DNA of 64,000 nucleotides, from the IMG/VR virus record IMGVR_UViG_3300037439_000266, positions 269 to 64,268 of that record; one strand, written 5' to 3'. Of the stretch, positions 10,490 to 32,323 are shown piece by piece (within the stretch, counting starts at the first letter, position 1; each line of letters begins with the position of its first letter). A program made the translations under genes and the position numbers. Source of the stretch: a virus. Lineage: Duplodnaviria; Caudoviricetes. A model generated the notes under the pieces. The model was not told the DNA's origin. It did not search any database and saw nothing but the letters and a program-made list of their open reading frames with translations.

Positions 10490-11002
10490 TCACACCTTTC
10501 CGTTGCGGACTTGCAGGACATCGAGTTGGTGGGACTGCCACATGTGGGCGCAATCCTCGTCGTCCTCGAACACACCCCGGACGTTCCAATTAGGTTTGAT
10601 CGACTTCTGGTAGACCATTTCCTTGTAGTCGAAGTCCAGAGGCTGGCGATCGCTGGTGCTGTCCCGCATGAACAGGTGGGGCACCTCTTTCGGGCCGTCC
10701 CCCCAGCGACTGAGGAGGTAGTGGTTCTGGAGCTGCTCGATCGTGGCCTCGCGGCAGTCGTCGAAGCGCGCCGTCACGAACAGGAGCTGCTGCCCGGCCC
10801 GCTTGAGGCACAGGGCGACGTCAAGGACGGCCTGAATGGGCTCGGCTTGTAGGAGGCGCTGGCGCGTCTCCCAGTCGGGGTCGATTTGGAAGAGCGTTCC
10901 GTCGAGGTCGAAGATCCAGGCCAGGGGGCGGGGGTCGGTGGTGAAGGTTTCGCCGTCGAGGCTCGCCGAGGCGATGGCCTCATCGATCAGTCTGTTGTCC
11001 AC
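10490..11002 (-). CDS. HAD-family phosphatase (PseT/PNKP 3'-phosphatase-like, no kinase domain)
   Basis: IFDLDGTL, VTAR, LFMR, FEDD motifs. Confidence 0.85.
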   Translation of the reverse strand: MDNRLIDEAIASASLDGETFTTDPRPLAWIFDLDGTLFQIDPDWETRQRLLQAEPIQAVLDVALCLKRAGQQLLFVTARFDDCREATIEQLQNHYLLSRWGDGPKEVPHLFMRDSTSDRQPLDFDYKEMVYQKSIKPNWNVRGVFEDDEDCAHMWQSHQLDVLQVRNGKV

Positions 11003-12927: not shown

Positions 12928-13341
12928 CTAAAGGTCGGAGGTGGCGCAGCTGCTGCGAACGGCCCACAGCTCCGGCGGAGCCCAGGCGGCCCAGACCTCG
13001 CAGGGGGCATCGGCGCCAGGGTTCTGGACCAGGTAGTCCCGGAGGGCGAGCTCCTCCTCGTAGGCCTGCTGGAGGAGATCCGCCTGGTCCTGGGGGTCCT
13101 CGGCGGCCATCGCCTCGGCGAGTAGAGTCTGGATGGACTGGTCGCGGTTGTAGAGGTCGAGCCACTCCTCGGAGGGCTGCCAAGGCTCGGCCGCGGCTTC
13201 GACCGGGGCCGAGGTGCTGACGGGGGCTTGGGAGGGGTCGCGGTCGTCGGCGGGCTCGGCGGGCTCGGCGGGAAGAGCGCAGGCGCTAATTGCGAGCCCA
13301 AGGAGGCAAGTGGCCCAGGTCAGGCGCGATTTTCGAGTCAC
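12928..13341 (-). CDS. Putative lipoprotein, 137 aa
   Basis: Basic N-terminus, hydrophobic stretch, lipobox AISA-C, Pro-rich linker; RBS gaaagga. Confidence 0.65.
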   Translation of the reverse strand: MTRKSRLTWATCLLGLAISACALPAEPAEPADDRDPSQAPVSTSAPVEAAAEPWQPSEEWLDLYNRDQSIQTLLAEAMAAEDPQDQADLLQQAYEEELALRDYLVQNPGADAPCEVWAAWAPPELWAVRSSCATSDL

Positions 13342-13915
13342 GAGGGGAATTCCTTTCGGGAGAGTAGGCGTTGGCCGAGGTGCGAGAGAGCGACGCGTGG
13401 CCGGGAGCCCACCAGGGCGAGGAGGCGGGGCCGCCGACAAGCGCCAACGGAGCCTGGATAGACACTCGTGGAAGCTGAGCCGTGTCCGAGCCGCTGAGCC
13501 ATTGCACTGGGGAGTTCGACGCCCAGTGAGAAAGCCAGATCGGGGGCTGTTCGGAAACTGCTGGGGTCGACTGCGGCTCCTCCGGGGGCGGGACTGAGGG
13601 TGAGGTCTCCTCGACCTCCGAGGACCGCGTACCAGACGCTGGTAGGGGAACTGCGAGGTGCCGGATAGGCAACGAGGCAGGGGAGGTTCTGGAGGAGGGA
13701 CCAGTCGGTCGTCGCCATTCGATGGAGATTTGCCCGGGTGTCGTCAAGGTCAGGGGCTCGTTCTGGCGGTAGGGCTCGGCCTGCGGCGTCAGGGAGGGCG
13801 ACCCAGGTGAGACTGGCGGGCCCGAAGCCTGGGACTCCCGGCCCGCCAGAAAGAACGCAGCCGTACAGGCTACGGCTGTCGTCAAAGGGAGTAGGGCTGC
13901 GATCCATTCCATCAC
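13286..13915 (-). CDS. Possible Pro/Ser-rich membrane-anchored protein
   Basis: N-terminal TM, but atypical codon usage and overlap. Confidence 0.3.
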   Translation of the reverse strand: MMEWIAALLPLTTAVACTAAFFLAGRESQASGPPVSPGSPSLTPQAEPYRQNEPLTLTTPGQISIEWRRPTGPSSRTSPASLPIRHLAVPLPASGTRSSEVEETSPSVPPPEEPQSTPAVSEQPPIWLSHWASNSPVQWLSGSDTAQLPRVSIQAPLALVGGPASSPWWAPGHASLSRTSANAYSPERNSPRDSKIAPDLGHLPPWARN

Positions 13916-14045
13916 GTCTCCGATCTAGGGCCGGGGCTTGTCTCCGGGGTAGGCGTCCATCGTAGCACGGGCTGTGCCTGGCGGACAATGGGGGGTCGGA
14001 TGTGGGAGTGGTCACGCTGCCCGGAGCGCCAGCTCCGGCAGCGGA

Positions 14046-14909
14046 TTACAGCTGCGCCACGTAGGCCGAGGCGCCCAGGAAGAGGCCCGGGAGGGCAACG
14101 CGGCGAACGGAGCTGCAGCTTACGTCGCCCTCGGCCCACTGGTCGCCCGCCAACTCTGCCAACATGTTGGCGTAGCCCCGCATCAGGACCGGGAAGGGGC
14201 TGGGGCGATTGGAGGGGTCCGCGGGGCGGGTGGCGCTGAGGGTGGCGCACAGGCTGCCCGCGACGCCGGAATCGAGGCTGCGAGGATAGACCTGGCCGAC
14301 ACTGCGAAGGAGGGCGTAAGGGGGGAAGCCGAGGTGGGAGGCGACCTGGGCGTTCAGTTCTTCGAGGGCCTGTCGATTCCCATTGAAGAGCTGGAGCTGG
14401 TCGACTCCCGTTCCCACGGCGCCGACGATGCCCCGGAACTTCACCTTTCGGGCGAGGCGGGCAACATCGGCACTGACGGACTCCTCGCCACGCCGGGCCA
14501 GGTCGGCGGCGAGGTGCTCCAAGGAGCGGCGGGTGAGATAGAGTTCGAGATTGTCGTCGAGGTCGCGGCCGGTCATGCCGAGGTGGGCGAGCTGGTGGCC
14601 CGCGCGCTCGTTGAAGATTTCGAGTCGGGCCTTCACGTCGTGGTGGACGATGAGTTCGCGGTCGTGGATGGCGCGAAGATCCTCGATTGGGACGTCCAAG
14701 GCGGCACGGTAGTCCTCGATGGCGACGTCTGGGATGTCGAGGCCGAGGTCGCGCTGAGAGGTCATGACGGCCAGCCAGAGGAGGCGTTCGAGGCGGACCT
14801 TGGTGGGGAAGGCCCAGAGGTTGCGCAGCTCCTGTGAGGCGGCTCGGTTGACGAGGTCGAAGCCCCAGTCGGTCGTGGTGCGGTAGCTGGCGTCGTTGGG
14901 TTCGTTCAC
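14046..14909 (-). CDS. purB: Adenylosuccinate lyase (PurB)-derived protein with internal and C-terminal deletions, about 287 aa
   Basis: Collinear with actinobacterial PurB (HHDVKAR, GMTGRD, GAVGT, SVGQVYPRSLD, GDQWxEGDVSCSxVRRVALP) but lacks RSH and SSAMPHKxN. Confidence 0.85.
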   Translation of the reverse strand: MNEPNDASYRTTTDWGFDLVNRAASQELRNLWAFPTKVRLERLLWLAVMTSQRDLGLDIPDVAIEDYRAALDVPIEDLRAIHDRELIVHHDVKARLEIFNERAGHQLAHLGMTGRDLDDNLELYLTRRSLEHLAADLARRGEESVSADVARLARKVKFRGIVGAVGTGVDQLQLFNGNRQALEELNAQVASHLGFPPYALLRSVGQVYPRSLDSGVAGSLCATLSATRPADPSNRPSPFPVLMRGYANMLAELAGDQWAEGDVSCSSVRRVALPGLFLGASAYVAQL

Positions 14910-15094
14910 GGTTCGGGGCCCTTCAAACGAGTCTGGGCCCCTGATGGGCCCAGTCGTTGAGGCACCGCCCGGACTTGAACCGGGGTACACTCGCTTTGCA
15001 GGCGAGGACATAACCACTCTGTCACGGTGCCAAGGCGGCGGCCCGCGAGCACCCCGGCCATCCTCGGTGAATGATTCGGTTACGGGCCGCCTAG

Positions 15095-15184
15095 CGGAAA
15101 CTAGAGGAGTTGAACCCCCGCCCCCATCGCTGGGGACGTCCCGGTTTTCGAGACCAGGTGCACGCCCTGTGGTGCATAGCTTCC
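15095..15184 (-). tRNA. tRNA-Ser(CGA)
   Basis: Cloverleaf, long variable arm. Confidence 0.85.
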
Positions 15185-15195
15185 ATTGACTTGCG

Positions 15196-15278
15196 CGGAG
15201 AAAGGGGGAATCGAACCCCGGCCCGTTAGGACCACCAGATTAGCAATCCGGCTGCCGCTGCCTATCGGCACATTCTCC
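15196..15278 (-). tRNA. tRNA-Ser(GCT)
   Basis: Cloverleaf, long variable arm. Confidence 0.85.
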
Positions 15279-15407
15279 ATGTAGTCTCGGCACGGGCAGT
15301 TGAATCGTGTCCGCTCCGCCCGAGACACCCCGCCTGCTAGCGGACGAGGTCCAGTTGAGCACCCGCCCCCGCGTCCGGGGTTGGGCTCGAAGGTCGGTAT
15401 CACCTTG

Positions 15408-15488
15408 TTGCCACGGTGAGATTCGAACTCACTTAGCCTGGGCGACCGCTTTACAGGCGGCCCGACCTCTCCTGCGGTCAGCGTGGCA
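15408..15488 (-). tRNA. tRNA-Tyr(GTA)
   Basis: Cloverleaf, CTGTAAA loop. Confidence 0.8.
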
Positions 15489-15499
15489 CCAGCTCTGGG

Positions 15500-15913
15500 T
15501 TAGTTACCCTCCCCAGAAGTTTCGAGGTTGACGTCCGGGATGAGCACCTCGGGACGGATCATGATCTCGTGGTGGAAGGGGTCGACCTCGAGCGCGTCGA
15601 GCTGCTCGGCCAGGTACGTGGAGTTGTCGGAGAGGCCGTAGAAGTGCTTGAGGTAAGCGCCCGCGTCGTCACCCTCGGCGACCTTGCAGGTGATTTCGAG
15701 CTGGTTGCCCTCGTCCACGAGATTGCAGAAGCCCTCGATGGTGAGGACGGCCTGACCGGTGATCCCGTTGATGAACGTGATCTCACGGTAGACCTTGAAG
15801 TTGTCGGCGGCGGTGGAGAGGTTGTCCGAGGCGGTGGTGGCCTCGTCGGAGCAGGCGGTGAGAGCCGTTCCGGCCAGGGCCGCGACCAGGATGAGCTTCG
15901 CTACGTTTCGCAT
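15500..15913 (-). CDS. Phage lipoprotein, 137 aa, embedded in the tRNA array
   Basis: Lipobox LTA-C; ASDNLSxAADNF...ITFINGIT motif typical of a phage lipoprotein family. Confidence 0.8.
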   Translation of the reverse strand: MRNVAKLILVAALAGTALTACSDEATTASDNLSTAADNFKVYREITFINGITGQAVLTIEGFCNLVDEGNQLEITCKVAEGDDAGAYLKHFYGLSDNSTYLAEQLDALEVDPFHHEIMIRPEVLIPDVNLETSGEGN

Positions 15914-15940
15914 TGAGTCTTCCTTCTGTCGATTCGGGGG

Positions 15941-16029
15941 TGTAGGCAGTCCGGAATCGAACCGGTCCCCCTTGCAGGGGCGCAGCTTTCGCTGACTGGA
16001 CGCACCAATACCCAGCACTCCGTGCCTAC
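15941..16029 (-). ncRNA. Aberrant tRNA-like RNA (acceptor and T arm, extended D arm, GAAA hairpin, CTGCAAG hairpin)
   Basis: GTAGGCA/TGCCTAC stem; CCGG-TTCGATT-CCGG T arm. Confidence 0.65.
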
Positions 16030-16030
16030 G

Positions 16031-16105
16031 TAGTCCGTGCGGGACTTGAACCCGCAAATGCCCAGATTGAAAGTCTGGTGGCTCTACCTATTCGCCCAAC
16101 GGACC
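16031..16105 (-). tRNA. tRNA-Glu(TTC)
   Basis: Cloverleaf. Confidence 0.9.
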
Positions 16106-16210
16106 TTAAACACCCGCGAGTGGCGCTCGATGGCAGTCTAACGCCAACGCAGGTGCGACCTCTGCCAAGGTCTTGAAGCCAATTCAGGTTTACAAGCCTG
16201 ACCGCTCCCG

Positions 16211-16283
16211 CTCCCCGGGGATGGCTCGAACATCCAACCTCGCGGTCCAGAGCCGCGCGTTCTTCCAGTTGAACTACCGGGGA
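16211..16283 (-). tRNA. tRNA-Gln(CTG)
   Basis: Cloverleaf. Confidence 0.9.
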
Positions 16284-16295
16284 CTAACTGTTGCG

Positions 16296-16368
16296 CTGTC
16301 CATCGAGGGGTCGAACCTCGCACCTCCCGAGCCAAAATCGGGCGTTCTTCCAACTGAACTAATGGACA
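16296..16368 (-). tRNA. tRNA-Gln(TTG)
   Basis: Cloverleaf. Confidence 0.9.
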
Positions 16369-16489
16369 AGGACCTCGGGGCGGGACCGATGGCTGTCAGT
16401 TCCGGGATCCGAGGTTCGACCCCCAGCCAGGGGTCTGGGGCCGACAGCGGGGTTAAGGGCGTGGTGTCCCCGGCCTGCTGCGGACCTTG

Positions 16490-16562
16490 CTGCCTGGGGA
16501 GGGCTCGAACCTCCGACCTCGCGGTTAACAACCGCTCGCTCTGCCAACTGAGCTACCAGACA
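16490..16562 (-). tRNA. tRNA-Asn(GTT)
   Basis: Cloverleaf. Confidence 0.9.
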
Positions 16563-16773
16563 CTGTGTAGGGGCCCCGGCCCACTCCTGCCACAGGCAGG
16601 TCGGGACCCCGTTAGACCGCGTTTCTCGTCCAGGTGCGTGGTCCATGCCTGGTGTTCGCAGGTAGGCAGTGTTGCCCAGGTCCCTCTTCAACGGGTGGCC
16701 ACCCTCCAAGGTTCGGGCCTCTGACGGCTCCTGCGGCTCACGACACCTTCGGTACCAAGGTGCCTATCTTGCG

Positions 16774-16846
16774 TACACCGAGCGGGATTCGAACCCGCGT
16801 TCTCCTCATTGAGAGTGAGGTGAGATTACCGCTACTCTACCGGTGC
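16774..16846 (-). tRNA. tRNA-Glu(CTC)
   Basis: Cloverleaf. Confidence 0.9.
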
Positions 16847-16999
16847 TCGGACCGGCCGGTGCAGACGACCGGTCCCCGGGCCTCCGCTTCCAACAGAACG
16901 CCCGGCTATGAAGGCCGCCTGCGGAATCAGGTGGGCCGTTGTTGTTCGAGCTGGTCTATCTGAAGGCCACGGTGGCTCCGTGTCGATGCGCCTTCATTG

Positions 17000-17071
17000 C
17001 AGGGCAGGAGGGGTTCGAACCCCCGACCTTCGGTTTTGGAGACCGCTGCTCTTCCACTGAGCTACTACCCA
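17000..17071 (-). tRNA. tRNA-Trp(CCA)
   Basis: Cloverleaf. Confidence 0.9.
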
Positions 17072-17245
17072 TCGTATTTTGTTAGTGCGACCCCGGGCCG
17101 TTTTCAGCCGACCCGGGGTCGCTCCCCCATCCCTCAACCCCTGAAGGAAGTCGGGCGGGGCGGTGCAAGGTCCTGACGCTCGGCAAGCGGAAATCTCAGA
17201 GAGATCTCGCTCGGCATCCCGTGTCGGTGTCAATGACCGCCCCTG

Positions 17246-17318
17246 TGGCCCTCCAGGGACTCGAACCCCGGACCCTCTGATCCGTAATCAGATGCTCTAT
17301 CCTCTGAGCTAGAGAGCC
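17246..17318 (-). tRNA. tRNA-Arg(ACG)
   Basis: Cloverleaf. Confidence 0.9.
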
Positions 17319-20618: not shown

Positions 20619-20690
20619 CGCGGAATAGCTTAACGGCAGAGCACCAGCCTCATAAGCTGGAAAGTCTCGGTTCAAATCCGAGTTCCGCTA
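20619..20690 (+). tRNA. tRNA-Met/Ile2(CAT)
   Basis: Cloverleaf; C1 mismatched, but no 3 G-C initiator anticodon stem. Confidence 0.85.
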
Positions 20691-20821
20691 CGAAACGATG
20701 CAATACCTAAGTAGTCAGACTGAGTGGGCCCCGGCGAGGGTCGTGTCAGACATTCGAACGGTGCGCTAGTTTCGGTGCCCCCCGGCGCAAGTGCTGAGCA
20801 CGCGAGGCCGGGGGGACCCAA

Positions 20822-20898
20822 GCTCGCTTAGCCTAGAGGCCGAGGGCGTCCCCCTGTCGAGGGGAAGAACACGGGTTCGAATCCCGTAGCGAGTGCCA
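20822..20898 (+). tRNA. tRNA-Asp(GTC), CCA encoded
   Basis: Cloverleaf. Confidence 0.9.
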
Positions 20899-20969
20899 TT
20901 GTGTCGGGCCCCAAGCGTCTGCAGCGTTGTTGGAGCCTCCCGGGAGGTGCGCCCGGCACGGTGAAATAG

Positions 20970-21044
20970 CGGGATGTAGCCAAGCTTGGTAAGGCGCTTG
21001 CTTTGGGAGCAAGAGACGCGGGGGTTCAAATCCTCCCATCCCGA
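20970..21044 (+). tRNA. tRNA-Pro(TGG)
   Basis: Cloverleaf. Confidence 0.9.
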
Positions 21045-21046
21045 CT

Positions 21047-21118
21047 GTGGCCGTAGCTCAACGGAAGAGCGCGCGGATGTGGCCCGCGTGGTTGTGGGTT
21101 CAACTCCCATCGGTCACC
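21047..21118 (+). tRNA. tRNA-His(GTG)
   Basis: Cloverleaf. Confidence 0.9.
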
Positions 21119-21120
21119 CC

Positions 21121-21193
21121 GCCTTGGTAGCTCAACGGATAGAGCGCCCGGTTCCGGACCGGGAGGCTGCAGGTTCGAATCCTGCCTGGGGCA
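21121..21193 (+). tRNA. tRNA-Arg(CCG)
   Basis: Cloverleaf. Confidence 0.9.
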
Positions 21194-21202
21194 CGTGAGA
21201 GT

Positions 21203-21273
21203 GGGCCGGTAGCTTAATTGGTAAAGCAGGCCGGGGACGGCTATTTTGTGCGGGTTCGAGTCCCGCCCGGAAG
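21203..21273 (+). ncRNA. tRNA-like RNA with GGGA tetraloop in place of the anticodon loop
   Basis: Canonical D and T arms; GGCCG-GGGA-CGGCT; acceptor stem only 4 bp. Confidence 0.65.
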
Positions 21274-21303
21274 TGCACACCCACTCCCACACTAACTTAA
21301 CAA

Positions 21304-21377
21304 GCCCGGGTGGCCCAATTGGCAGAGGCGTCCGCTTCAGGAGCGGAAAGTTGGGGGTTCGAGTCCCTCTTCGGGTA
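21304..21377 (+). tRNA. tRNA-Leu(CAG), short variable arm
   Basis: Cloverleaf. Confidence 0.85.
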
Positions 21378-21445
21378 CGGGGCACGCTGGGGTGCCCTTG
21401 CAGCGATGTCGGTCATGAACGGCAGAGTGTAAAACCCCAGCACAA

Positions 21446-21518
21446 GCTCGTCTAGTCCAATGGCAGAGACACCGGCCTCAAAAACCGGCAAGTCCCGGTT
21501 CGAGTCCGGGGGCGAGTA
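21446..21518 (+). tRNA. tRNA-Leu(CAA), short variable arm
   Basis: Cloverleaf. Confidence 0.85.
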
Positions 21519-21580
21519 CTAGCCAGGTAGTTCTAGATAAGCCTGGCCGAATGGAGATGGGCGTCGCGCAAGCGCCCCCT

Positions 21581-21652
21581 CAGCACGTAGCTCAGATGGT
21601 AGAGCGCCGCCCTCGCGGGTGGAGGTCAGGGGTTCAAATCCTGCTCGTGCAC
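21581..21652 (+). tRNA. Degenerate tRNA-Ala(CGC)-like (6-nt anticodon loop, weak T and acceptor stems)
   Basis: D arm canonical; CCGCC-CTCGCG-GGTGG. Confidence 0.55.
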
Positions 21653-21654
21653 CC

Positions 21655-21726
21655 GCCGCAGTCGGTTAATTGGCAAACTCACTGACTTCCAATCAGTTAC
21701 TGGGGGTTCGAATCCCCTCTGCGGCT
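21655..21726 (+). tRNA. tRNA-Gly(TCC)
   Basis: Cloverleaf. Confidence 0.85.
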
Positions 21727-21731
21727 CTGAA

Positions 21732-21790
21732 GGGACGTCATCTGGACAGCAGGTGCGCGCACCGGGGAGGCTCGAAACCTCCGGCGTCCC
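21732..21790 (+). ncRNA. Short tRNA-like RNA lacking an anticodon arm
   Basis: GGGACGT/GCGTCCC acceptor stem; GGAGG-..TCGAAA-CCTCC T-like arm. Confidence 0.5.
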
Positions 21791-21796
21791 TTCTCC

Positions 21797-21869
21797 GCCC
21801 TTGTAGCTCAGTGGTCAGAGCAGCTGTTTAGTAATCAGCTGGTCCGGGGTTCGAATCCTCGCGGGGGCT
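21797..21869 (+). tRNA. tRNA-Thr(AGT)
   Basis: Cloverleaf, TTAGTAA loop. Confidence 0.8.
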
Positions 21870-21870
21870 C

Positions 21871-21942
21871 GGCTTGTTAGCTCAGTTGGAAGAGTACCGG
21901 AGTGAAGTCCCGGGAGCGGCGGTTCGAATCCGTCACGAGCCA
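21871..21942 (+). tRNA. tRNA-Phe(GAA), atypical 31-39/32-38 positions
   Basis: Cloverleaf. Confidence 0.8.
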
Positions 21943-21943
21943 C

Positions 21944-22016
21944 GCGTCGTTAGCTCAGTTGGTAGAGCTTCGTCCTCTTAAGTCGAAGGTCCTAGGTTCG
22001 ATCCCTAGACGGCGCA
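21944..22016 (+). tRNA. tRNA-Lys(CTT)
   Basis: Cloverleaf. Confidence 0.9.
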
Positions 22017-22017
22017 C

Positions 22018-22090
22018 GCCTCGCTAGCTCAGTGGTAAGAGCAGCTTCCTTTTAAGTAGCGGGTCCGGGGTTCGACTCCCTGGCGGGGCA
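22018..22090 (+). tRNA. tRNA-Lys(TTT)
   Basis: Cloverleaf. Confidence 0.9.
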
Positions 22091-22091
22091 C

Positions 22092-22164
22092 AGCTGACTA
22101 GCTCAACGGTTAGAGTACCACTCTGATAAGGTGGGGGTTCTCGGTTCGAATCCGAGGTTAGCTA
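22092..22164 (+). tRNA. tRNA-Ile(GAT)
   Basis: Cloverleaf. Confidence 0.9.
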
Positions 22165-22165
22165 C

Positions 22166-22238
22166 GCACCGTTAGCTCAGTGGAACGAGCGGCTGTCTTA
22201 CAAGCAGCGGGTCGGGGGTTCGACTCCTCCACGGTGTA
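22166..22238 (+). tRNA. tRNA-Val(TAC)
   Basis: Cloverleaf. Confidence 0.9.
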
Positions 22239-22322
22239 CAAGGTTCCAGAGGACGTAGTCGCTAAGTCGGTTGGCGCGGGGTCAACAAACGCGGGCGTGG
22301 CGCACCGCCTGGAACCGAGCAA

Positions 22323-22396
22323 GGGCTGTTAGCTCCAATTGGTAGAGCGTCTGTTTTGCATACAGAGGGTTGTCGGTTCGAATCCGTCACGGTCCA
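22323..22396 (+). tRNA. tRNA-Ala(TGC)
   Basis: Cloverleaf, G3:U70. Confidence 0.9.
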
Positions 22397-22457
22397 CTCG
22401 GGGTGTTCGCCGAGCTGTCCTCTTTAGGGTCTTACCGCCTGAATCAGCTCGGATCTA

Positions 22458-22530
22458 GGGCGCGTAGCTCAGCGGATAGAGCTGGACTTTCCTAAAGTCT
22501 GCGGCGAGGGTTCGAATCCTTCCGCGCCCA
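22458..22530 (+). tRNA. tRNA-Arg(CCT)
   Basis: Cloverleaf. Confidence 0.9.
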
Positions 22531-22553
22531 CGGGTCCATTCGGGGGTCCTTCA

Positions 22554-25104: not shown

Positions 25105-25470
25105 ATGGACCCACTGACCGAAATGATGATCCTGGACACGCTGCCCGTGGCGCGCGCGGTGCTGGGACTGCCCGACGACCTCGCAGAGCTGGCCGTCCGG
25201 CACGCCTACACCTGCCCTGAAAGGCCGTGCCTGGTGGAGCGCTACCTCACCAGCAAGATGCTGGAGGCCGCTGCCGAGAGCAACGGCGTTCCGATCGAGC
25301 AGGTCACCGACCTGACCCTGGCCGTCTCAAAGGGACTGGCCGACACCCTCCGAATCCGGAAGGAGCAGCAGGGGGAGCTTGCCCCCGGCGAGGCTGAGGC
25401 GGCCTACCGCCAGAGCGCCGAGGCGCTGCACGCCACGATGGAACTCCTGCGGGGAGGCTCCCGTGACTAG
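25105..25470 (+). CDS. Hypothetical protein, 121 aa
   Basis: RBS gaagga; codon bias. Confidence 0.7.
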   Translation: MDPLTEMMILDTLPVARAVLGLPDDLAELAVRHAYTCPERPCLVERYLTSKMLEAAAESNGVPIEQVTDLTLAVSKGLADTLRIRKEQQGELAPGEAEAAYRQSAEALHATMELLRGGSRD

Positions 25471-27481
25471 GCTCAATGAACTTCCCCCGGGACATCCTGT
25501 CACCGTGGACATCGAGGGCAGCGGCCTCCATCCCGACGACGGGGCCACGGTCTCCGTGGTCAGCTTCGCCTACCGTGACCCGACGGACGGCTCCATGGTC
25601 TCCCAGGCGGTGCCGTTCGACCAGGGCCTGCATTCCCCGCTGGGGGAGAAGGTCCTGACGGCCGCAACGCAACGCCGCCTCAAGAAGTGGCCCGAGTGGG
25701 CTCTCGCCGAGGTGGCCCCCAACCGCCCGCCGGAGGACTTCGACCGCCTCCTGCAGCTCTTGGAACCGATGGACCTGGTCTTCCACAACGCCAAGTTCGA
25801 CCTGATGTTCCTGGAGGCCGGTCTGCGGGGGCACCCCGGCCGGAACCTGCAGCCCCGTCTCGCCTGGGACACTATGGTTGCGCAGTGGGTCCGGGAGCCG
25901 CAGATGCCGAAGGGTCTCAAGCCCTCGGCGGTCCGGCTGGAGTTGACCGACTCCGGCGCGGAGGACGCCGAGGCCGAGGCTCTCAAGCCGTGGCTCGGCC
26001 CCAAGTCCGGCAAGAACTCCGACCCTCGCTTCGACCTGGTGCCGTGGTCCGTGATGGAGCCCTACGCCCGAGTCGACGCCGAGCTGACCCTGCTGCTGTG
26101 GGAGTACCAGAACGACCGCCTCGACCCCGAGACCGACGTCGGGTTCTGGAAGTACTTCGATGAGGAGATGGAGTTCATCCACGTCCTGCGCAATATGGAG
26201 CGCCGGGGCGTGGGATTCGACGCCGAAGGCTGCCGGGCCGCCGCCGAGGTGCTGCGCGCCGAGCAGGCCGCCTCGGCGAAGCTCCTGCCTTTCAAGGGCA
26301 GCACGGGCGGCCCCACTCCCAACGCGGCCCGCAAATTCTTCTTCCAAGGCCCCCCGCAGTTCCAGCCGTCCTACGACACCGGCGGCAACGAGATCGAGCT
26401 GGAGGTCCCTGTTGAGGAGCCGGTGCGGCCCGGAACCGAAGACTTCCGGGGGATTCCGCCGTTCCCGGACAAGCTCACCGCCGGGGGCCAGCCCCAGGTG
26501 GATGAAGAGACGGTCACCCGGCTCGTCGCCCAGGGCATTCCGTGGGCGGAGGAGTATGCCAACCACGAAGGCCTGAAGTCGGCCCTGTCGAAGTGGTACG
26601 ACCCGTGGCCCCTGGCCTGCGGGCCGGACGGTCGCCTGCGGACCTCCTACAGGCAGGGCGGCACGATCTCGGGGCGGCTCGCCGTGGGCCGGGTGCAGCT
26701 GCAGGCGATTCCGCACGACTACCTGATGCCCTCGAAGTCGGTGCCCTCGGTCCGAAACTTCTTCCAGCCCCGGCCCGGGTTCCAGCTCTGGGAGTTCGAC
26801 GTCTCGCAGGCCGAGATCCGGCTGGCCACGGCCCTGGCCCGCTGCCGTCCGATGCTGGAGGGCATCGAGCGCGGGGACGACTCCCACTCGATCGCTTGCA
26901 AGCTCATGTTCGGGATCGACGAGTCGGATCCGCTCTGGGACCAGCGACGCCAGATCGCCAAGCGGTGCAACCTCGGAATCCTGTACGGGGCCGGGGCCAA
27001 GGTGATTCGGGAGCAGCTGCTGAAGTTCGCCAACATGGACGTCAGCCTCAAGCAGGTGCGCGAGTGGATTAACGACTGGAAACAGGCGTTCTCCCCGTTC
27101 ACCGTGGCGCTGGAGCGCGCGCAGGACCAGGCCGAACGGATGGGCTACGTGCGGCTGTACAACGGGCGGCAGCGCTGGTTCTCGGACTATGAGCCCTCCC
27201 ACAAGGCGTTCAATCAGATCGTGCAGGGGTCGCTGGCGGAGATCATGAAGACCGCGATGATCGATATCGATCGGCTCTTTCCGGGCGAGTTGCTCCTGCA
27301 GATTCACGACAGCGTTGTGCTGGAGGTTCCGCAGGAACTGGCCCAGGAGCGCGGGCAGCAGGTCTGCGACATCCTGCGGGACCGCTTCGAGCGGGCCGTC
27401 TGGACCCCGTGGGAGACGGGCGGGGAGCCGATCCGCGTCCCGTTCGCCTCGGACGCCAAGGAATGGGTGCGTGCCGCATGA
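25463..27481 (+). CDS. polA: Family A DNA polymerase with 3'-5' exonuclease
   Basis: ExoI DIE, ExoII HNAKFD, ExoIII YARVD; motifs A (DVSQAEIR), B (RQIAKRCNLGILYG), C (IHDS). Confidence 0.95.
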   Translation: MTRLNELPPGHPVTVDIEGSGLHPDDGATVSVVSFAYRDPTDGSMVSQAVPFDQGLHSPLGEKVLTAATQRRLKKWPEWALAEVAPNRPPEDFDRLLQLLEPMDLVFHNAKFDLMFLEAGLRGHPGRNLQPRLAWDTMVAQWVREPQMPKGLKPSAVRLELTDSGAEDAEAEALKPWLGPKSGKNSDPRFDLVPWSVMEPYARVDAELTLLLWEYQNDRLDPETDVGFWKYFDEEMEFIHVLRNMERRGVGFDAEGCRAAAEVLRAEQAASAKLLPFKGSTGGPTPNAARKFFFQGPPQFQPSYDTGGNEIELEVPVEEPVRPGTEDFRGIPPFPDKLTAGGQPQVDEETVTRLVAQGIPWAEEYANHEGLKSALSKWYDPWPLACGPDGRLRTSYRQGGTISGRLAVGRVQLQAIPHDYLMPSKSVPSVRNFFQPRPGFQLWEFDVSQAEIRLATALARCRPMLEGIERGDDSHSIACKLMFGIDESDPLWDQRRQIAKRCNLGILYGAGAKVIREQLLKFANMDVSLKQVREWINDWKQAFSPFTVALERAQDQAERMGYVRLYNGRQRWFSDYEPSHKAFNQIVQGSLAEIMKTAMIDIDRLFPGELLLQIHDSVVLEVPQELAQERGQQVCDILRDRFERAVWTPWETGGEPIRVPFASDAKEWVRAA

Positions 27482-27843
27482 GTGAAGAGTTGGCATGGCC
27501 CAACCTGGTCCTGATTGACCTGCGATCCGCCAAGGCGCTGTCCGAGGATGAGTCGCCCGACGCCGACGAGATTTACGCGTCCGCCATCGACGTGCCGGAC
27601 CTCCTCACCGAGGTCAAACGCCTGCGGCAGGAGAACCTGAACCTCCGTGAGATGATCGAGGCAGGGGGCGATCGAGCCCGACGTCTGGAAGGGGCCAACA
27701 CCAAACTGACCAGCGACGCCAAGTGGCTGTTCGGGGAGTTCGGATGGGAGCATTGGCGCGAATGCGACATTCCCGACGAAGAGGATGGCGGATGCGGGTC
27801 CTGCGCCGCCCTAAAGAAAATGAGGCCTGAGTATGGAAATTGA
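27478..27843 (+). CDS. Hypothetical protein, 121 aa
   Basis: ATGA coupling. Confidence 0.7.
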   Translation: MSEELAWPNLVLIDLRSAKALSEDESPDADEIYASAIDVPDLLTEVKRLRQENLNLREMIEAGGDRARRLEGANTKLTSDAKWLFGEFGWEHWRECDIPDEEDGGCGSCAALKKMRPEYGN

Positions 27844-28042
27844 CCTGGAGCGCATCAAGGCCGACATCGCGGACGAGTTCGACATGCCGGACTGGGTCAA
27901 GGCGCACGTTGCGGACCTGATTCTCGAAGTTGAGCGGCTGACTCAGCGCGAGCACAAGCTCAACGCTCTGGAGACGTACGGCGTCGACAATTGGGAGGGC
28001 TACGAGCCCGCCATGAATGACGAAGAGGGGGAGTTCGATTGA
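27833..28042 (+). CDS. Hypothetical protein, 69 aa (LNALETYGVDNWEGY motif)
   Basis: Common phage microprotein motif. Confidence 0.75.
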   Translation: MEIDLERIKADIADEFDMPDWVKAHVADLILEVERLTQREHKLNALETYGVDNWEGYEPAMNDEEGEFD

Positions 28043-29668: not shown

Positions 29669-30103
29669 ATGGACTGTATTAACGGACACAAGAACCCCGA
29701 ACGCTACGCCAACGGCACCTGCAAGCAGTGCACCAAGGACAAAGCTGAGGAGTGGAGGCGCGACCCCGTCAACTGGGAGAAGCGCCGGGAAACAGAGCGA
29801 CTCCGGGCCCAGCGCCAGCGTCAATCCGACCGAGAAGCAGCCCTGACCAAATACGGCCCCGGCTGCCGCTGCTGTGGCGAATCGATCGAGACCTTCCTTA
29901 CGATTGACCACGTAGACGGGGGCGGGGCCGCACATCGAAAAGAGATTTTCGGCCCCAACTACTCGGGACGTCGTCCGGCGGGTAGCCGCACCTACCGCTG
30001 GCTGCGCCTTAACAACTACCCCTCAGGATTTCAGGTCCTGTGCTTCAACTGCAATTATGCCAAGCACGCTCTCGGAGCGTGTCCTCACCAGAAGGGCAAG
30101 TAA
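29669..30103 (+). CDS. HNH-type endonuclease 2 (same family as HNH 1)
   Basis: RBS aaggag; CRCCGE...IDH...LCFNCN. Confidence 0.85.
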   Translation: MDCINGHKNPERYANGTCKQCTKDKAEEWRRDPVNWEKRRETERLRAQRQRQSDREAALTKYGPGCRCCGESIETFLTIDHVDGGGAAHRKEIFGPNYSGRRPAGSRTYRWLRLNNYPSGFQVLCFNCNYAKHALGACPHQKGK

Positions 30104-30104
30104 G

Positions 30105-31286
30105 ATGGAACGTGGCAGGATCTCCGTCGTAGTCGGAGGGCAATTCGGGTCCGAGGGTAAGGGGGCCGTTGCCGCCTGGATCGGACGAACGGCAGTCAAT
30201 GAGGGTCGAGAGGTGTTGGGGGTGCGCGTGGGGGGGCCGAATGCTGGCCATACTACGTACGGCCGCTGCCCCTACGAGATCGATAAGCAGGACAACCCTC
30301 AAGCGAGCTGCGCCAAGTGCAACGAGTTCGGACACCCGTGGGCGCTGCGCCAGGTGCCGGTCGTGGCAGTCACGAACCCCGAGGCGGGGCTGGTCATCGC
30401 GGCCGGTTCCGAGGTGGACCCCGAGGTCCTGGCCACCGAACTGGCCCTGCTCGACCGGGCCGGTTACCGGGCCACGGAGCGCTTGGTCCTGGACGGCAAC
30501 GCGACCCTCCTGATGGAGTCGCACCGTTCGGCCGAGGCCGGGAAGGAGCTGCAGAAGCGGCTCGGCTCCACGGCCAAGGGAATCGGCGGGGCCCGGGTCG
30601 ACCGGCTCTGGCGCGAGGCCCGCACCGTGGCCCTCCACGACGGTTTCCCGCCAGAGCTCTACGGGGACCCGGACATCTCGATGGACACGGCCGACCTGAT
30701 GGAGCGTGTCCTGGCCGAGGGCGGCCACGTCATCATCGAGGGGACCCAGGGCTACGGGCTCGGTCTCCACACCGAGTACTACCCCTTCACGACCTCGGGT
30801 GACTGCCGCGCCATCGACTTCCTGGCGCAGGCCGGGCTCAGCCCTTGGCTCCCCGAAACAGAACTCAAGGTCGTCGTCTGCTTCCGGCCGTTCCCGATCC
30901 GCGTCGCCGGGAACTCCGGGCCGATGGGGGTCGAGACCACCTGGGACAACCTGGGGCTCCCGCAGGAGCTGACCACGGTGACCCAGAAGGTCCGTCGCGT
31001 CGCCGAGTGGGACCCCGCCCTGGTCGAGACCGCAATCCGCGCCAACGGCGGCCTCGGCCCCCACATGGTCCTGGCCCTCACCATGGCCGACCACGTCATC
31101 CCGGAGCTGAAAGGCATGTCCCGGTTCATCGAGGTCGGGGCCGACAATGAGGCGGCCATCCAGAAGTGGGTCGAATCCTCGGGGCTGTCCCCCGAGGTTC
31201 GGGGGGCGCTGTGGGGCCAACTGGGCTACGGCCGCACCCTGCTGGGAACCGGGCCGACTACGATGTTGGGAGACCTTCCCGAATAA
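30105..31286 (+). CDS. purZ: Diaminopurine synthetase, PurZ/PurZ0-type (adenylosuccinate synthetase homolog)
   Basis: GQFGSEGKG (Ser for PurA catalytic Asp), GPNAGHT, EGTQG, TTVT..RR, TMAD. Confidence 0.85.
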   Translation: MERGRISVVVGGQFGSEGKGAVAAWIGRTAVNEGREVLGVRVGGPNAGHTTYGRCPYEIDKQDNPQASCAKCNEFGHPWALRQVPVVAVTNPEAGLVIAAGSEVDPEVLATELALLDRAGYRATERLVLDGNATLLMESHRSAEAGKELQKRLGSTAKGIGGARVDRLWREARTVALHDGFPPELYGDPDISMDTADLMERVLAEGGHVIIEGTQGYGLGLHTEYYPFTTSGDCRAIDFLAQAGLSPWLPETELKVVVCFRPFPIRVAGNSGPMGVETTWDNLGLPQELTTVTQKVRRVAEWDPALVETAIRANGGLGPHMVLALTMADHVIPELKGMSRFIEVGADNEAAIQKWVESSGLSPEVRGALWGQLGYGRTLLGTGPTTMLGDLPE

Positions 31287-31391: not shown

Positions 31392-31733
31392 GTGGCGGAC
31401 AAGACCGACAAGATCGGGGACCTGCGACCCAACTTCCACCGTTGGTGGGCCGAGATGGTCGACAAGGAAGCCCCTACGATTCAGGCCAAGGCTCAGGAGT
31501 ACGGATCGAACTCGCTGGCTCAGATGGGCCACATGTTCGCCCGAGCCCAGGGACGAGGCGTCACCGAGGCCGAGGCCCTGGAGATCGGCAGCTTCATCTA
31601 CGCCTACGGCAAGCTCCAGCGCGTGGGGGACGCTCTTCTCCACGGCAAACTCCCGTCCACCGACACCTGGACGGACTTGGCCGTGTACTCGACGATGTCC
31701 CTCTACATTCGCGAAACCGGCCAGTGGCCCTAA
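31392..31733 (+). CDS. All-alpha nucleotide-modification-associated protein (DUF1599/MazG-like)
   Basis: K..EYG...K..R...DT..DL..Y pattern; lies between purZ and dut. Confidence 0.6.
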   Translation: MADKTDKIGDLRPNFHRWWAEMVDKEAPTIQAKAQEYGSNSLAQMGHMFARAQGRGVTEAEALEIGSFIYAYGKLQRVGDALLHGKLPSTDTWTDLAVYSTMSLYIRETGQWP

Positions 31734-31753
31734 CGAAAGGTAAAGCCTCACCA

Positions 31754-32323
31754 ATGAGCAATCCGATTGAGATCCCCGAATACCTGAAGGACCCCGACCC
31801 GCACGAGTTCCGCGAGGTCCGAATCGACCTGGACGGGTTCGCCGTTCCGGACCCGCCCTTCACCGGGAAGCTGCGCTACGAGGCCAGCGACCCCGACTTC
31901 GAGCTGAAGCAGGGCTACCCCGGCGACGCCGGGTTCGACCTCGCCGCCAGCGAGGACTGGACCGTGGACGCCCACGACCACGGCCTGATCCCGACCGGGG
32001 TCAAGCTCGAAATCCCCGAGGGGCTGTTCGTCTGGATCGTGGCCCGATCCTCCACGATGAAGAACTGGGGATTCATGGTCCTGCCGGGCATCATCGACAC
32101 CGGATTCCGAGGTGAGCTGTACGCCTCGGTCTACAACACCCGAGGCTACTCGGTTTCGGTGAAGAAGGGCGACCGCATCGCGCAGGTCGTGCCGCTGCCG
32201 AACGTCGCGCCTCTCCTGGAGCCCCAGCGCGTCGACTTCGTGGACGCCGACACCTCCCGAGGTGCGGCCGGTTTCGGCTCGACCGGGGTCGGGGGCAGCG
32301 GCTGCCTGGCCGGTTGCCCCTAG
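31754..32323 (+). CDS. dut: Trimeric dUTPase-family pyrophosphatase
   Basis: AGFDL, ARSS, GIIDTGFRGE, GDRIAQ, RG..GFGSTG. Confidence 0.9.
   Translation: MSNPIEIPEYLKDPDPHEFREVRIDLDGFAVPDPPFTGKLRYEASDPDFELKQGYPGDAGFDLAASEDWTVDAHDHGLIPTGVKLEIPEGLFVWIVARSSTMKNWGFMVLPGIIDTGFRGELYASVYNTRGYSVSVKKGDRIAQVVPLPNVAPLLEPQRVDFVDADTSRGAAGFGSTGVGGSGCLAGCP

Follow-up and report, generated by a model that had tools for sequence, protein, structure and literature searches.

In the synthesis of 2-aminoadenine (Z) by phages, the second step, the conversion of dSMP to dZMP, is credited to the PurB of the host (PMC12884076; bioRxiv 10.1101/2025.10.22.683976). The literature that we searched, which did not cover the PurZ0 paper of Tong et al. 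2023, names host-encoded PurB alone for this step and contains no description of a catalytically dead form of the enzyme. Each PurB active site is assembled from three subunits (PMC2917274). In S. aureus PurB, subunit A contacts the ligand through Arg67, His68, Asp69, Ser94, Thr95, Gln212, Ser306 and Arg310, subunit B through the acid His141, and subunit C through Arg4, Tyr5 and Asn276 (PMC2917274). We infer that the mobile Ser262 loop also belongs to the share of subunit C. In PurB, domain 2 forms a long helical bundle that separates domain 1 at one end from domain 3 at the other (PMC2917274).

Phages with a PurZ-type synthetase may also carry a PurB relative of their own. A 'PurB-like adenylosuccinate lyase' is annotated in the Streptomyces phages Hiyaa, Keanu, Spocter and Galactica and in the Gordonia phages Archimedes and Sapo. 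The catalytic motifs GRTHG and GSSxMPHKxNP are present in the two that we read, Hiyaa gp76 (457 aa) and Archimedes gp38 (365 aa). The latter (L277:3746-4843) has a divergent domain 1 and falls ∼60-90 residues short of the remaining intact viral PurBs, the missing part apparently being at the C-terminus; loss of sequence appears to be tolerated in phage PurBs. In IMG/VR, a PurB-like match was found in 17 of 50 PurZ-bearing records and in 7 of the 24 that were at least 90% complete. These matches were mostly open frames of 415-553 aa, and the two that we read (L265 and L267) keep both catalytic motifs. The PurZ-bearing records G005 (L184), G007 (L185) and G009 (L187), of 73-94 kb, encode PurB-like proteins of 480-538 aa that likewise contain both motifs, the N-terminal domains of those in L185 and L187 being very divergent.

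The DNA analysed here, a stretch of 64,000 nucleotides referred to as the window, covers almost all of a 64,268-bp IMG/VR record with a CheckV completeness of 100%. Its closest PurZ relatives are the four Streptomyces phages named above. The PurZ of the window has GSEGKG where PurA has GDEGKG, and 7VF6, to which it was matched (see table), is the PurZ0 of Gordonia phage Archimedes (PMC12884076). The predicted PurZ0-type synthetase would make the intermediate that a PurB-type lyase must cleave. Judged by its gene set alone, comprising this synthetase, PolA and a dUTPase-family gene, the phage is predicted to have a Z genome; the dUTPase-family gene is a candidate for DutZ, whose role in Z phages has been described (PMC12884076). 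The window also codes for a primase-helicase, a lysin and 28 tRNAs. The tRNA genes form divergent arrays at 14959-17318 (-) and 20619-22531 (+), on either side of the primase-helicase gene, and the one at 21582-21654 received a 2-nt anticodon call that could not be assigned. Shortly after the polymerase gene, a 69-aa ORF at 27833-28042 (+) matches the T7 gp5.9 RecBCD-inhibitor family (E 4e-12).

The gene under study is a short purB on the minus strand. Its start was placed at the GTG at 14909, which has GAAGGG 9 nt upstream; an alternative start at 15017 was rejected because the longer frame would overlap the tRNA-Cys gene at 14959-15031. The GC contents of its three codon positions (0.72/0.45/0.86) indicate a strong coding bias, like that of the phage's real genes. 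Just downstream, the region 13286-14045 (-) has 42% amino-acid-level conservation with L001:10886-11590, a Pro/Ser-rich ORF with a hydrophobic stretch at its start. Within this region, the ORF at 13286-13915 was considered as a partner gene and rejected: it is conserved in relatives but has no codon bias of the coding type. A HAD/PNKP-type phosphatase gene lies at 10490-11002 (-) and recurs in L001, L006, L007, L011 and L014; most relatives have it downstream of the short purB at a distance of a few kb. It might encode another nucleotide-pool enzyme.

Table. Features of the window that bear on the short purB and its proposed pathway.
Feature	Position	Strand	Remark
Short PurB-derived gene, 287 aa	14046..14909	-	Domain 1 and domain-1-proximal part of the helical bundle
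EGDVSCSSVRR	14100..14132	-	Counterparts of the chain-A phosphate-binding Ser306 and Arg310 (PMC2917274)
Variable linker (deletion 2)	14193..14237	-	In place of the SSxMPxKxN catalytic Ser loop
GQVYPRS	14277..14297	-	Q206 = S. aureus Gln212, chain A, contacting base N6 (PMC2917274)
Deletion 1 junction	14463..14495	-	38 residues, PurB 135-172 with the catalytic His segment, missing
MTGRDLDDN (host PurB: MTSRDLTEN)	14550..14576	-	T113, D116 and N120 family-conserved; G114, D118 and D119 clade-specific
HHD motif	14637..14645	-	H90-D91 = S. aureus PurB His68-Asp69, chain A (alignment reading; roles from PMC2917274)
tRNA-Cys	14959..15031	-	Last of an 11-tRNA array; directly upstream of the short purB
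Family A DNA polymerase (PolA)	25379..27481	+	Upstream of purZ
PurZ0-type synthetase, GSEGKG serine signature	30057..31286	+	E 8e-74 to 7VF6
Frame with dUTPase-family domain, candidate DutZ	31442..32323	+	Just after purZ; true start probably later in the frame

To relate the short protein to PurB, we searched for structurally characterized homologues. In the PDB, phmmer matched it to the PurBs of M. tuberculosis (9OO0, E 4e-50) and M. smegmatis (4NLE, E 2e-49). The alignment comprised three blocks, in which residues 19-146, 151-222 and 234-281 of the query corresponded to PurB residues 8-137, 177-246 and 291-338, respectively; PurB residues 138-176 and 247-290 were skipped, and the alignment stopped at 338. 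An alignment of 90 full-length PurBs with 29 short forms placed the missing parts at PurB residues 135-172, which include GRSHNVAAQ and the catalytic acid, at 255-284, extending into GSSAMPHK, and at 359-479. In the protein of the window, the catalytic His segment GR(S/T)H is absent, a 13-residue unconserved linker stands at the site of the SSxMPxKxN loop, and the C-terminus lies 17 residues past EGDVSCSSVRR, at approximately PurB residue 348, with the end of helix 5 and domain 3 missing. The initial annotation had described a PurB homologue that has lost its His segment, Ser loop and C-terminal domain, and the phmmer blocks and the alignment of 90 PurBs confirm this description. The motifs that it had named were all found in the ORF, within HHD, MTGRDLDDN, GQVYPRS and EGDVSCSSVRR.

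An AlphaFold model of the short PurB, computed with 29 homologues, had a pLDDT of 86.7 and a pTM of 0.87. Foldseek matched this model to M. tuberculosis PurB (9OP0) with a probability of 1.00 and a TM-score of 0.76 (query-normalised). The short protein shares common descent with PurB and has the fold of domain 1 and of the helical bundle. Nevertheless, it falls under the thresholds of the PurB family: a Pfam-A search, in which PurB is represented by Lyase_1 and ADSL_C, gave no match to any family at E <= 1, and the NCBIfam purB model TIGR00928 scored 98.9 bits over three stretches, below its cut-off of 326.2. Scores of this kind would suit a decaying, functionless remnant of a captured host purB.

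The homologues of the short PurB argue strongly against such a remnant. A first protein search returned 28 short relatives of 256-322 aa, 45-71% identical, which ranked above thousands of full-length PurBs and all of which had the same three gaps. A profile search of 1.84 billion cluster representatives extended the family to ∼48 clusters (50% identity), with single-stretch forms of 233-303 aa. In 90 of 90 three-deletion forms, the His block was reduced to 0-2 residues (0 in nearly all) and domain 3 was missing; at the position of the Ser loop, these 90 short forms had an unconserved linker of 3-16 residues, variable in both length and sequence. The protein of the window fits this family, as it has all of the deletions and retains the chain-A motifs. 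The dN/dS ratio was 0.18 for L011 versus L014, whose proteins are 90% identical, and 0.12 for L011 versus L012. These ratios were taken from close pairs only, the NG86 values of distant pairs (0.34-0.75) being inflated by saturated dS in GC3-rich genes. Neutral decay with inconsistent deletions, the outcome that the initial annotation had set against its own reading, is ruled out by the same deletions in 90 homologues and by dN/dS ratios of 0.12-0.18. With identical deletions in homologues that have diverged, a frame that is intact everywhere and a strong codon bias, we attach practically no credence to a gene in decay.

In a phylogenetic tree, 35 of 37 sampled short forms made up one clade (support 95), nearer to bacterial PurB of the actinobacterial type than to the viral full-length PurBs. 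The latter, from IMG/VR, formed a separate starred group in the same tree (support 99). The PurB-like proteins of Hiyaa and Archimedes lay outside the sampling of the tree and resemble the L265/L267 type by their motifs. P0126 and P0158, which are three-deletion forms, were placed among bacterial full-length PurBs, and this could mean that the truncation arose on more than one occasion. With p = 0.227 in the AU test, one clade of all short forms is not rejected.

Other searches delimited the distribution of the short form. In a scan of IMG/VR, a narrow alignment yielded 0 loci and a wider one 10 loci. The best 80 loci from 185,579 species genomes contained full-length bacterial purB only, with no prophage short form. 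Four weak tblastn matches to 'Bacteriophage sp.' from human faeces were unrelated; MT835488.1 contains an ordinary full-length purB beside purF. PurZ was not found in either of the two human-faeces 'Bacteriophage sp.' records searched. Separately, L145:553-1935 (+) (JGI Ga0335070_10196323, 2 kb) encodes a PurB of 460 aa in which only the Ser loop is missing, the His segment and domain 3 being present. This protein might represent an intermediate with one deletion, a dead paralogue from a bacterium or an artefact of assembly.

To identify the residues under constraint, we compared 56 diverse short forms with a mean column identity of 32%. Twenty residues were invariant: E85, H90, D91, A94, H109, T113, D116, G160, G163, G166, Q206, R210, G245, W258, E260, G261, D262, S266, R269 and R270. 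From the alignment and the roles assigned to the S. aureus enzyme (PMC2917274), H90, D91, T113, Q206, S266, R269 and R270 are chain-A active-site residues, and the counterparts of His68, Asp69, Gln212, Ser306 and Arg310 are invariant in the short forms. By contrast, His141 of chain B and the loop and Asn276 of chain C are deleted, and the N-terminal Arg-Tyr (R16/Y17), which belongs to the share of chain C and is invariant in PurB, is unconserved. These data bear out the earlier proposal that the short protein keeps one subunit's share of the site: the chain-A counterparts are invariant and the shares of chains B and C are deleted or relaxed.

The residues that are special to the window's clade were considered as well. 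The position of Ser94 is occupied by Gly in this clade and by Ser in most of the short-form family. Moreover, only the window's clade has S106G, T110D and E111D fixed (MTGRDLDDN); the prevalent sequence in the family is MTSADVVDN. The Ser-to-Gly and Asp-Asp changes were therefore rejected as the general basis of a switch in specificity, because they are absent from most of the family.

On its own, the short PurB is predicted from its sequence to be unable to act as a lyase by the known mechanism. As the fold and the substrate-side residues are retained, a homo-oligomer might still be a lyase with other residues serving as acid and base. However, both catalytic segments are gone, and what stands in place of the Ser loop is a linker of variable length and sequence. 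Furthermore, no new catalytic candidates emerge from the only positions conserved in the short forms yet variable in PurB, an Ala, a Gly and another Ala. We consider residual lyase activity very improbable.

The conserved pocket could also serve a protein that acts alone. Read from the topology of the bundle, deletion 1 removes the tip between bundle helices 1 and 2, deletion 2 the tip between helices 3 and 4, and deletion 3 domain 3 together with the end of helix 5. If the PurB bundle is, as we take it to be, an up-down five-helix bundle, all three deletions would be at the domain-1-distal end and would amount to one transverse cut. Loss of one whole end is what might be expected of a self-sufficient domain, the monomer model is compact and confident, and the residues of the pocket that receive ribose, base and phosphate do not vary among the short forms. 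A monomer or homo-oligomer could thus hold a purine or succinyl-nucleotide (AMP, dAMP, adenylosuccinate or the PurZ product) as a buffer, as a carrier to host PurB or as a sensor, and would not enter a PurB tetramer. Several features count against this possibility. The contacts from the two other subunits, among them those of Arg-Tyr and Asn276 with the phosphate (PMC2917274), are lost, so that affinity may be low; the bundle helices are very hydrophobic for a free domain; and sequestration has no obvious worked-out benefit. We regard a binder of this type as conceivable but doubtful.

The genomic contexts of the short-form relatives were examined for a link to Z synthesis. Every context was phage-like. 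Wherever enough sequence was readable, a PurZ-type gene was co-located with the short form, that is, in the window, in two Logan contigs and in two IMG/VR records (G001 and G002). One of the contigs (L001/L005) spans 60 kb and is syntenic with the window. The other, L176, is deep-branching and has another genome layout; its Adenylsucc_synt gene is cut by the locus end, and the Ser signature is unreadable. The Ser signature of PurZ was read in the window, L005, G001 and G002. The co-occurrence with purZ to which the initial annotation had drawn attention holds in the window, L005, L176, G001 and G002, and the purZ-linked short forms span at least three deep branches of the family. No PurZ was seen within 10 kb on either side of the gene in L175, L177 and L178 or in G003 (61% complete), a coverage too limited to mean absence. 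Among 50,697 deposited phage records, 199 matched the PurZ of the window, and none of those matching records contained a short PurB at E <= 1e-5.

Consistent co-occurrence of the two genes would also be expected if the short protein were an adaptor, with a PurB-like surface that docks PurZ or another phage enzyme and no involvement of host PurB. However, the short purB lies 4-15 kb from purZ in neighbourhoods that differ, no partner gene is conserved throughout, and an adaptor would leave the conserved pocket unexplained. Such a role is improbable.

We then compared the short form with the intact PurBs of other PurZ phages. No second PurB-like gene was seen in the records that carry the short form. 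Because other PurZ phages carry an intact PurB and none was seen beside the short form, the latter takes the place of the lyase of related phages. As read from their genes, PurZ phages would exist in three states: with no PurB, with an intact PurB or with a short form that is predicted to be dead. The initial annotation knew of no description of the pairing of such a gene with purZ, and this has to be narrowed: phage PurB-like genes together with purZ had already been annotated, as in Hiyaa (gp76) and Archimedes (gp38), and it is the dead form that is new. Among the PurB-like genes of PurZ phages, the short form appears to be a new and widespread variant that is, on its predicted chemistry, catalytically dead.

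Overall, we propose, with a probability of roughly 40%, that the short PurB works at the PurB step of Z synthesis through assembly with subunits of host PurB. This reading is favoured because the protein has no catalytic loops, yet its substrate-side residues are constrained, in genomes that need the PurB step. The short PurB keeps the N-terminal domain and the adjacent bundle, which would provide one subunit's residues for binding of ribose, base, phosphate and succinyl group. As part of a mixed tetramer, the short PurB would be an 'A' subunit, on the substrate-recognition side, and the catalytic residues would come from host subunits. Sites that need a His or a Ser loop from the short PurB itself would be knocked out. 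On balance, the host would make less AMP and purine, and some sites would be retained or retuned to act on the PurZ product. In a stronger and more tentative version, the short PurB would be a 'parasitic subunit' whose hybrid sites divert the host enzyme from AMP/IMP synthesis to cleavage of the PurZ product; we hold this to be possible, though unlikely.

Several observations bear on whether the short PurB could assemble with host PurB. Of 40 bundle positions that are hydrophobic in PurB, 34 are still hydrophobic in the short form and 1 has turned polar. This hints at a kept subunit interface, in a count that cannot separate the core of a monomer from an interface. The position of the short clade, closer to PurBs of the host type than to viral full-length ones, likewise hints at co-assembly. 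Lee et al. 1999 reportedly regained activity when B. subtilis PurB inactivated at His68 was combined with PurB inactivated at His141. Such complementation would mean that PurB subunits can form working hybrid sites. On the other hand, the shorter bundle helices may bar the short PurB from entering a PurB tetramer, and a phage without its own lyase depends on host PurB for dZMP, so that poisoning would be costly. In addition, the Ser-to-Gly and Asp-Asp changes, which might retune the pocket, occur in the window's clade only, and a stand-alone binder is equally compatible with the conserved pocket residues.

Co-assembly could also serve inhibition alone. In that case, the short PurB would enter host PurB tetramers only to destroy sites, forming no useful hybrid site, and would lower the supply of AMP and hence of dATP, adding to the dATP-depleting enzymes of Z phages. 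Since each site draws on three subunits, incorporation of one that has neither the His nor the Ser loop would necessarily abolish two sites in a tetramer, and depletion of the dATP pool by Z phages is known (PMC12884076). However, a poison needs interface residues alone, yet the active-site residues are invariant in 56 sequences that are 32% identical; the conserved pocket is poorly explained by a pure poison. Moreover, host PurB is required for dZMP and for the de novo dGMP precursor, and the records with a short form show no lyase of their own. A purely dominant-negative role is therefore unlikely, and we prefer an assembly with host PurB in which the retained substrate side has a use.

The short-form family adds to the host-only and intact phage lyases a third state, in which a putatively dead lyase is maintained by selection. 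Action through host PurB, if confirmed, would make the short form a clear example of viral retuning or throttling of a central metabolic enzyme by subunit replacement, and would provide a natural tool for adjusting the A/Z balance in engineered Z-DNA systems. If the protein is indeed a parasitic subunit, the virus would reprogram the output of a host enzyme by subunit substitution, encoding neither an enzyme nor an inhibitor. For annotation pipelines, the short form is either unnamed or an 'adenylosuccinate lyase', and both labels are misleading.

In comparison with actinobacterial PurB (9OO0/9OP0, 4NLE), the short form has the same HD, T-x-x-D, GQVYPRS and EGDVSxSxxRR motifs. It differs in having no His segment, no Ser signature loop, no distal ends of the bundle helices and no domain 3, in being phage-encoded, in its unconserved N-terminal Arg-Tyr and in scoring far under the family cut-off. 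With Hiyaa gp76, Archimedes gp38 and the intact PurBs of IMG/VR it shares the presence of a phage PurB relative alongside a PurZ-type synthetase, and thus the same place in the logic of the pathway. The intact phage proteins contain GRTHG and GSSxMPHKxNP and are presumably active, whereas the short form has neither motif; those from IMG/VR also represent a different, divergent group of PurBs.

Hybrid sites and dead homologues have precedents in the fumarase/aspartase superfamily, which includes the intragenic complementation of argininosuccinate lyase and the inactive delta-1 crystallin. In these cases, as in PurB, sites are built from three subunits, and dead subunits can poison or complete mixed tetramers. 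They concern full-length proteins with point changes, whereas the short PurB has lost one whole end and its putative partner is the enzyme of the host. The AdoMetDC prozyme of trypanosomes is a dead paralogue that acts as a regulatory subunit. Both it and the short PurB are dead homologues kept by selection, the pairing of the short PurB with an active enzyme being putative. In the case of the short PurB, however, the dead copy is viral and the active copy is cellular.
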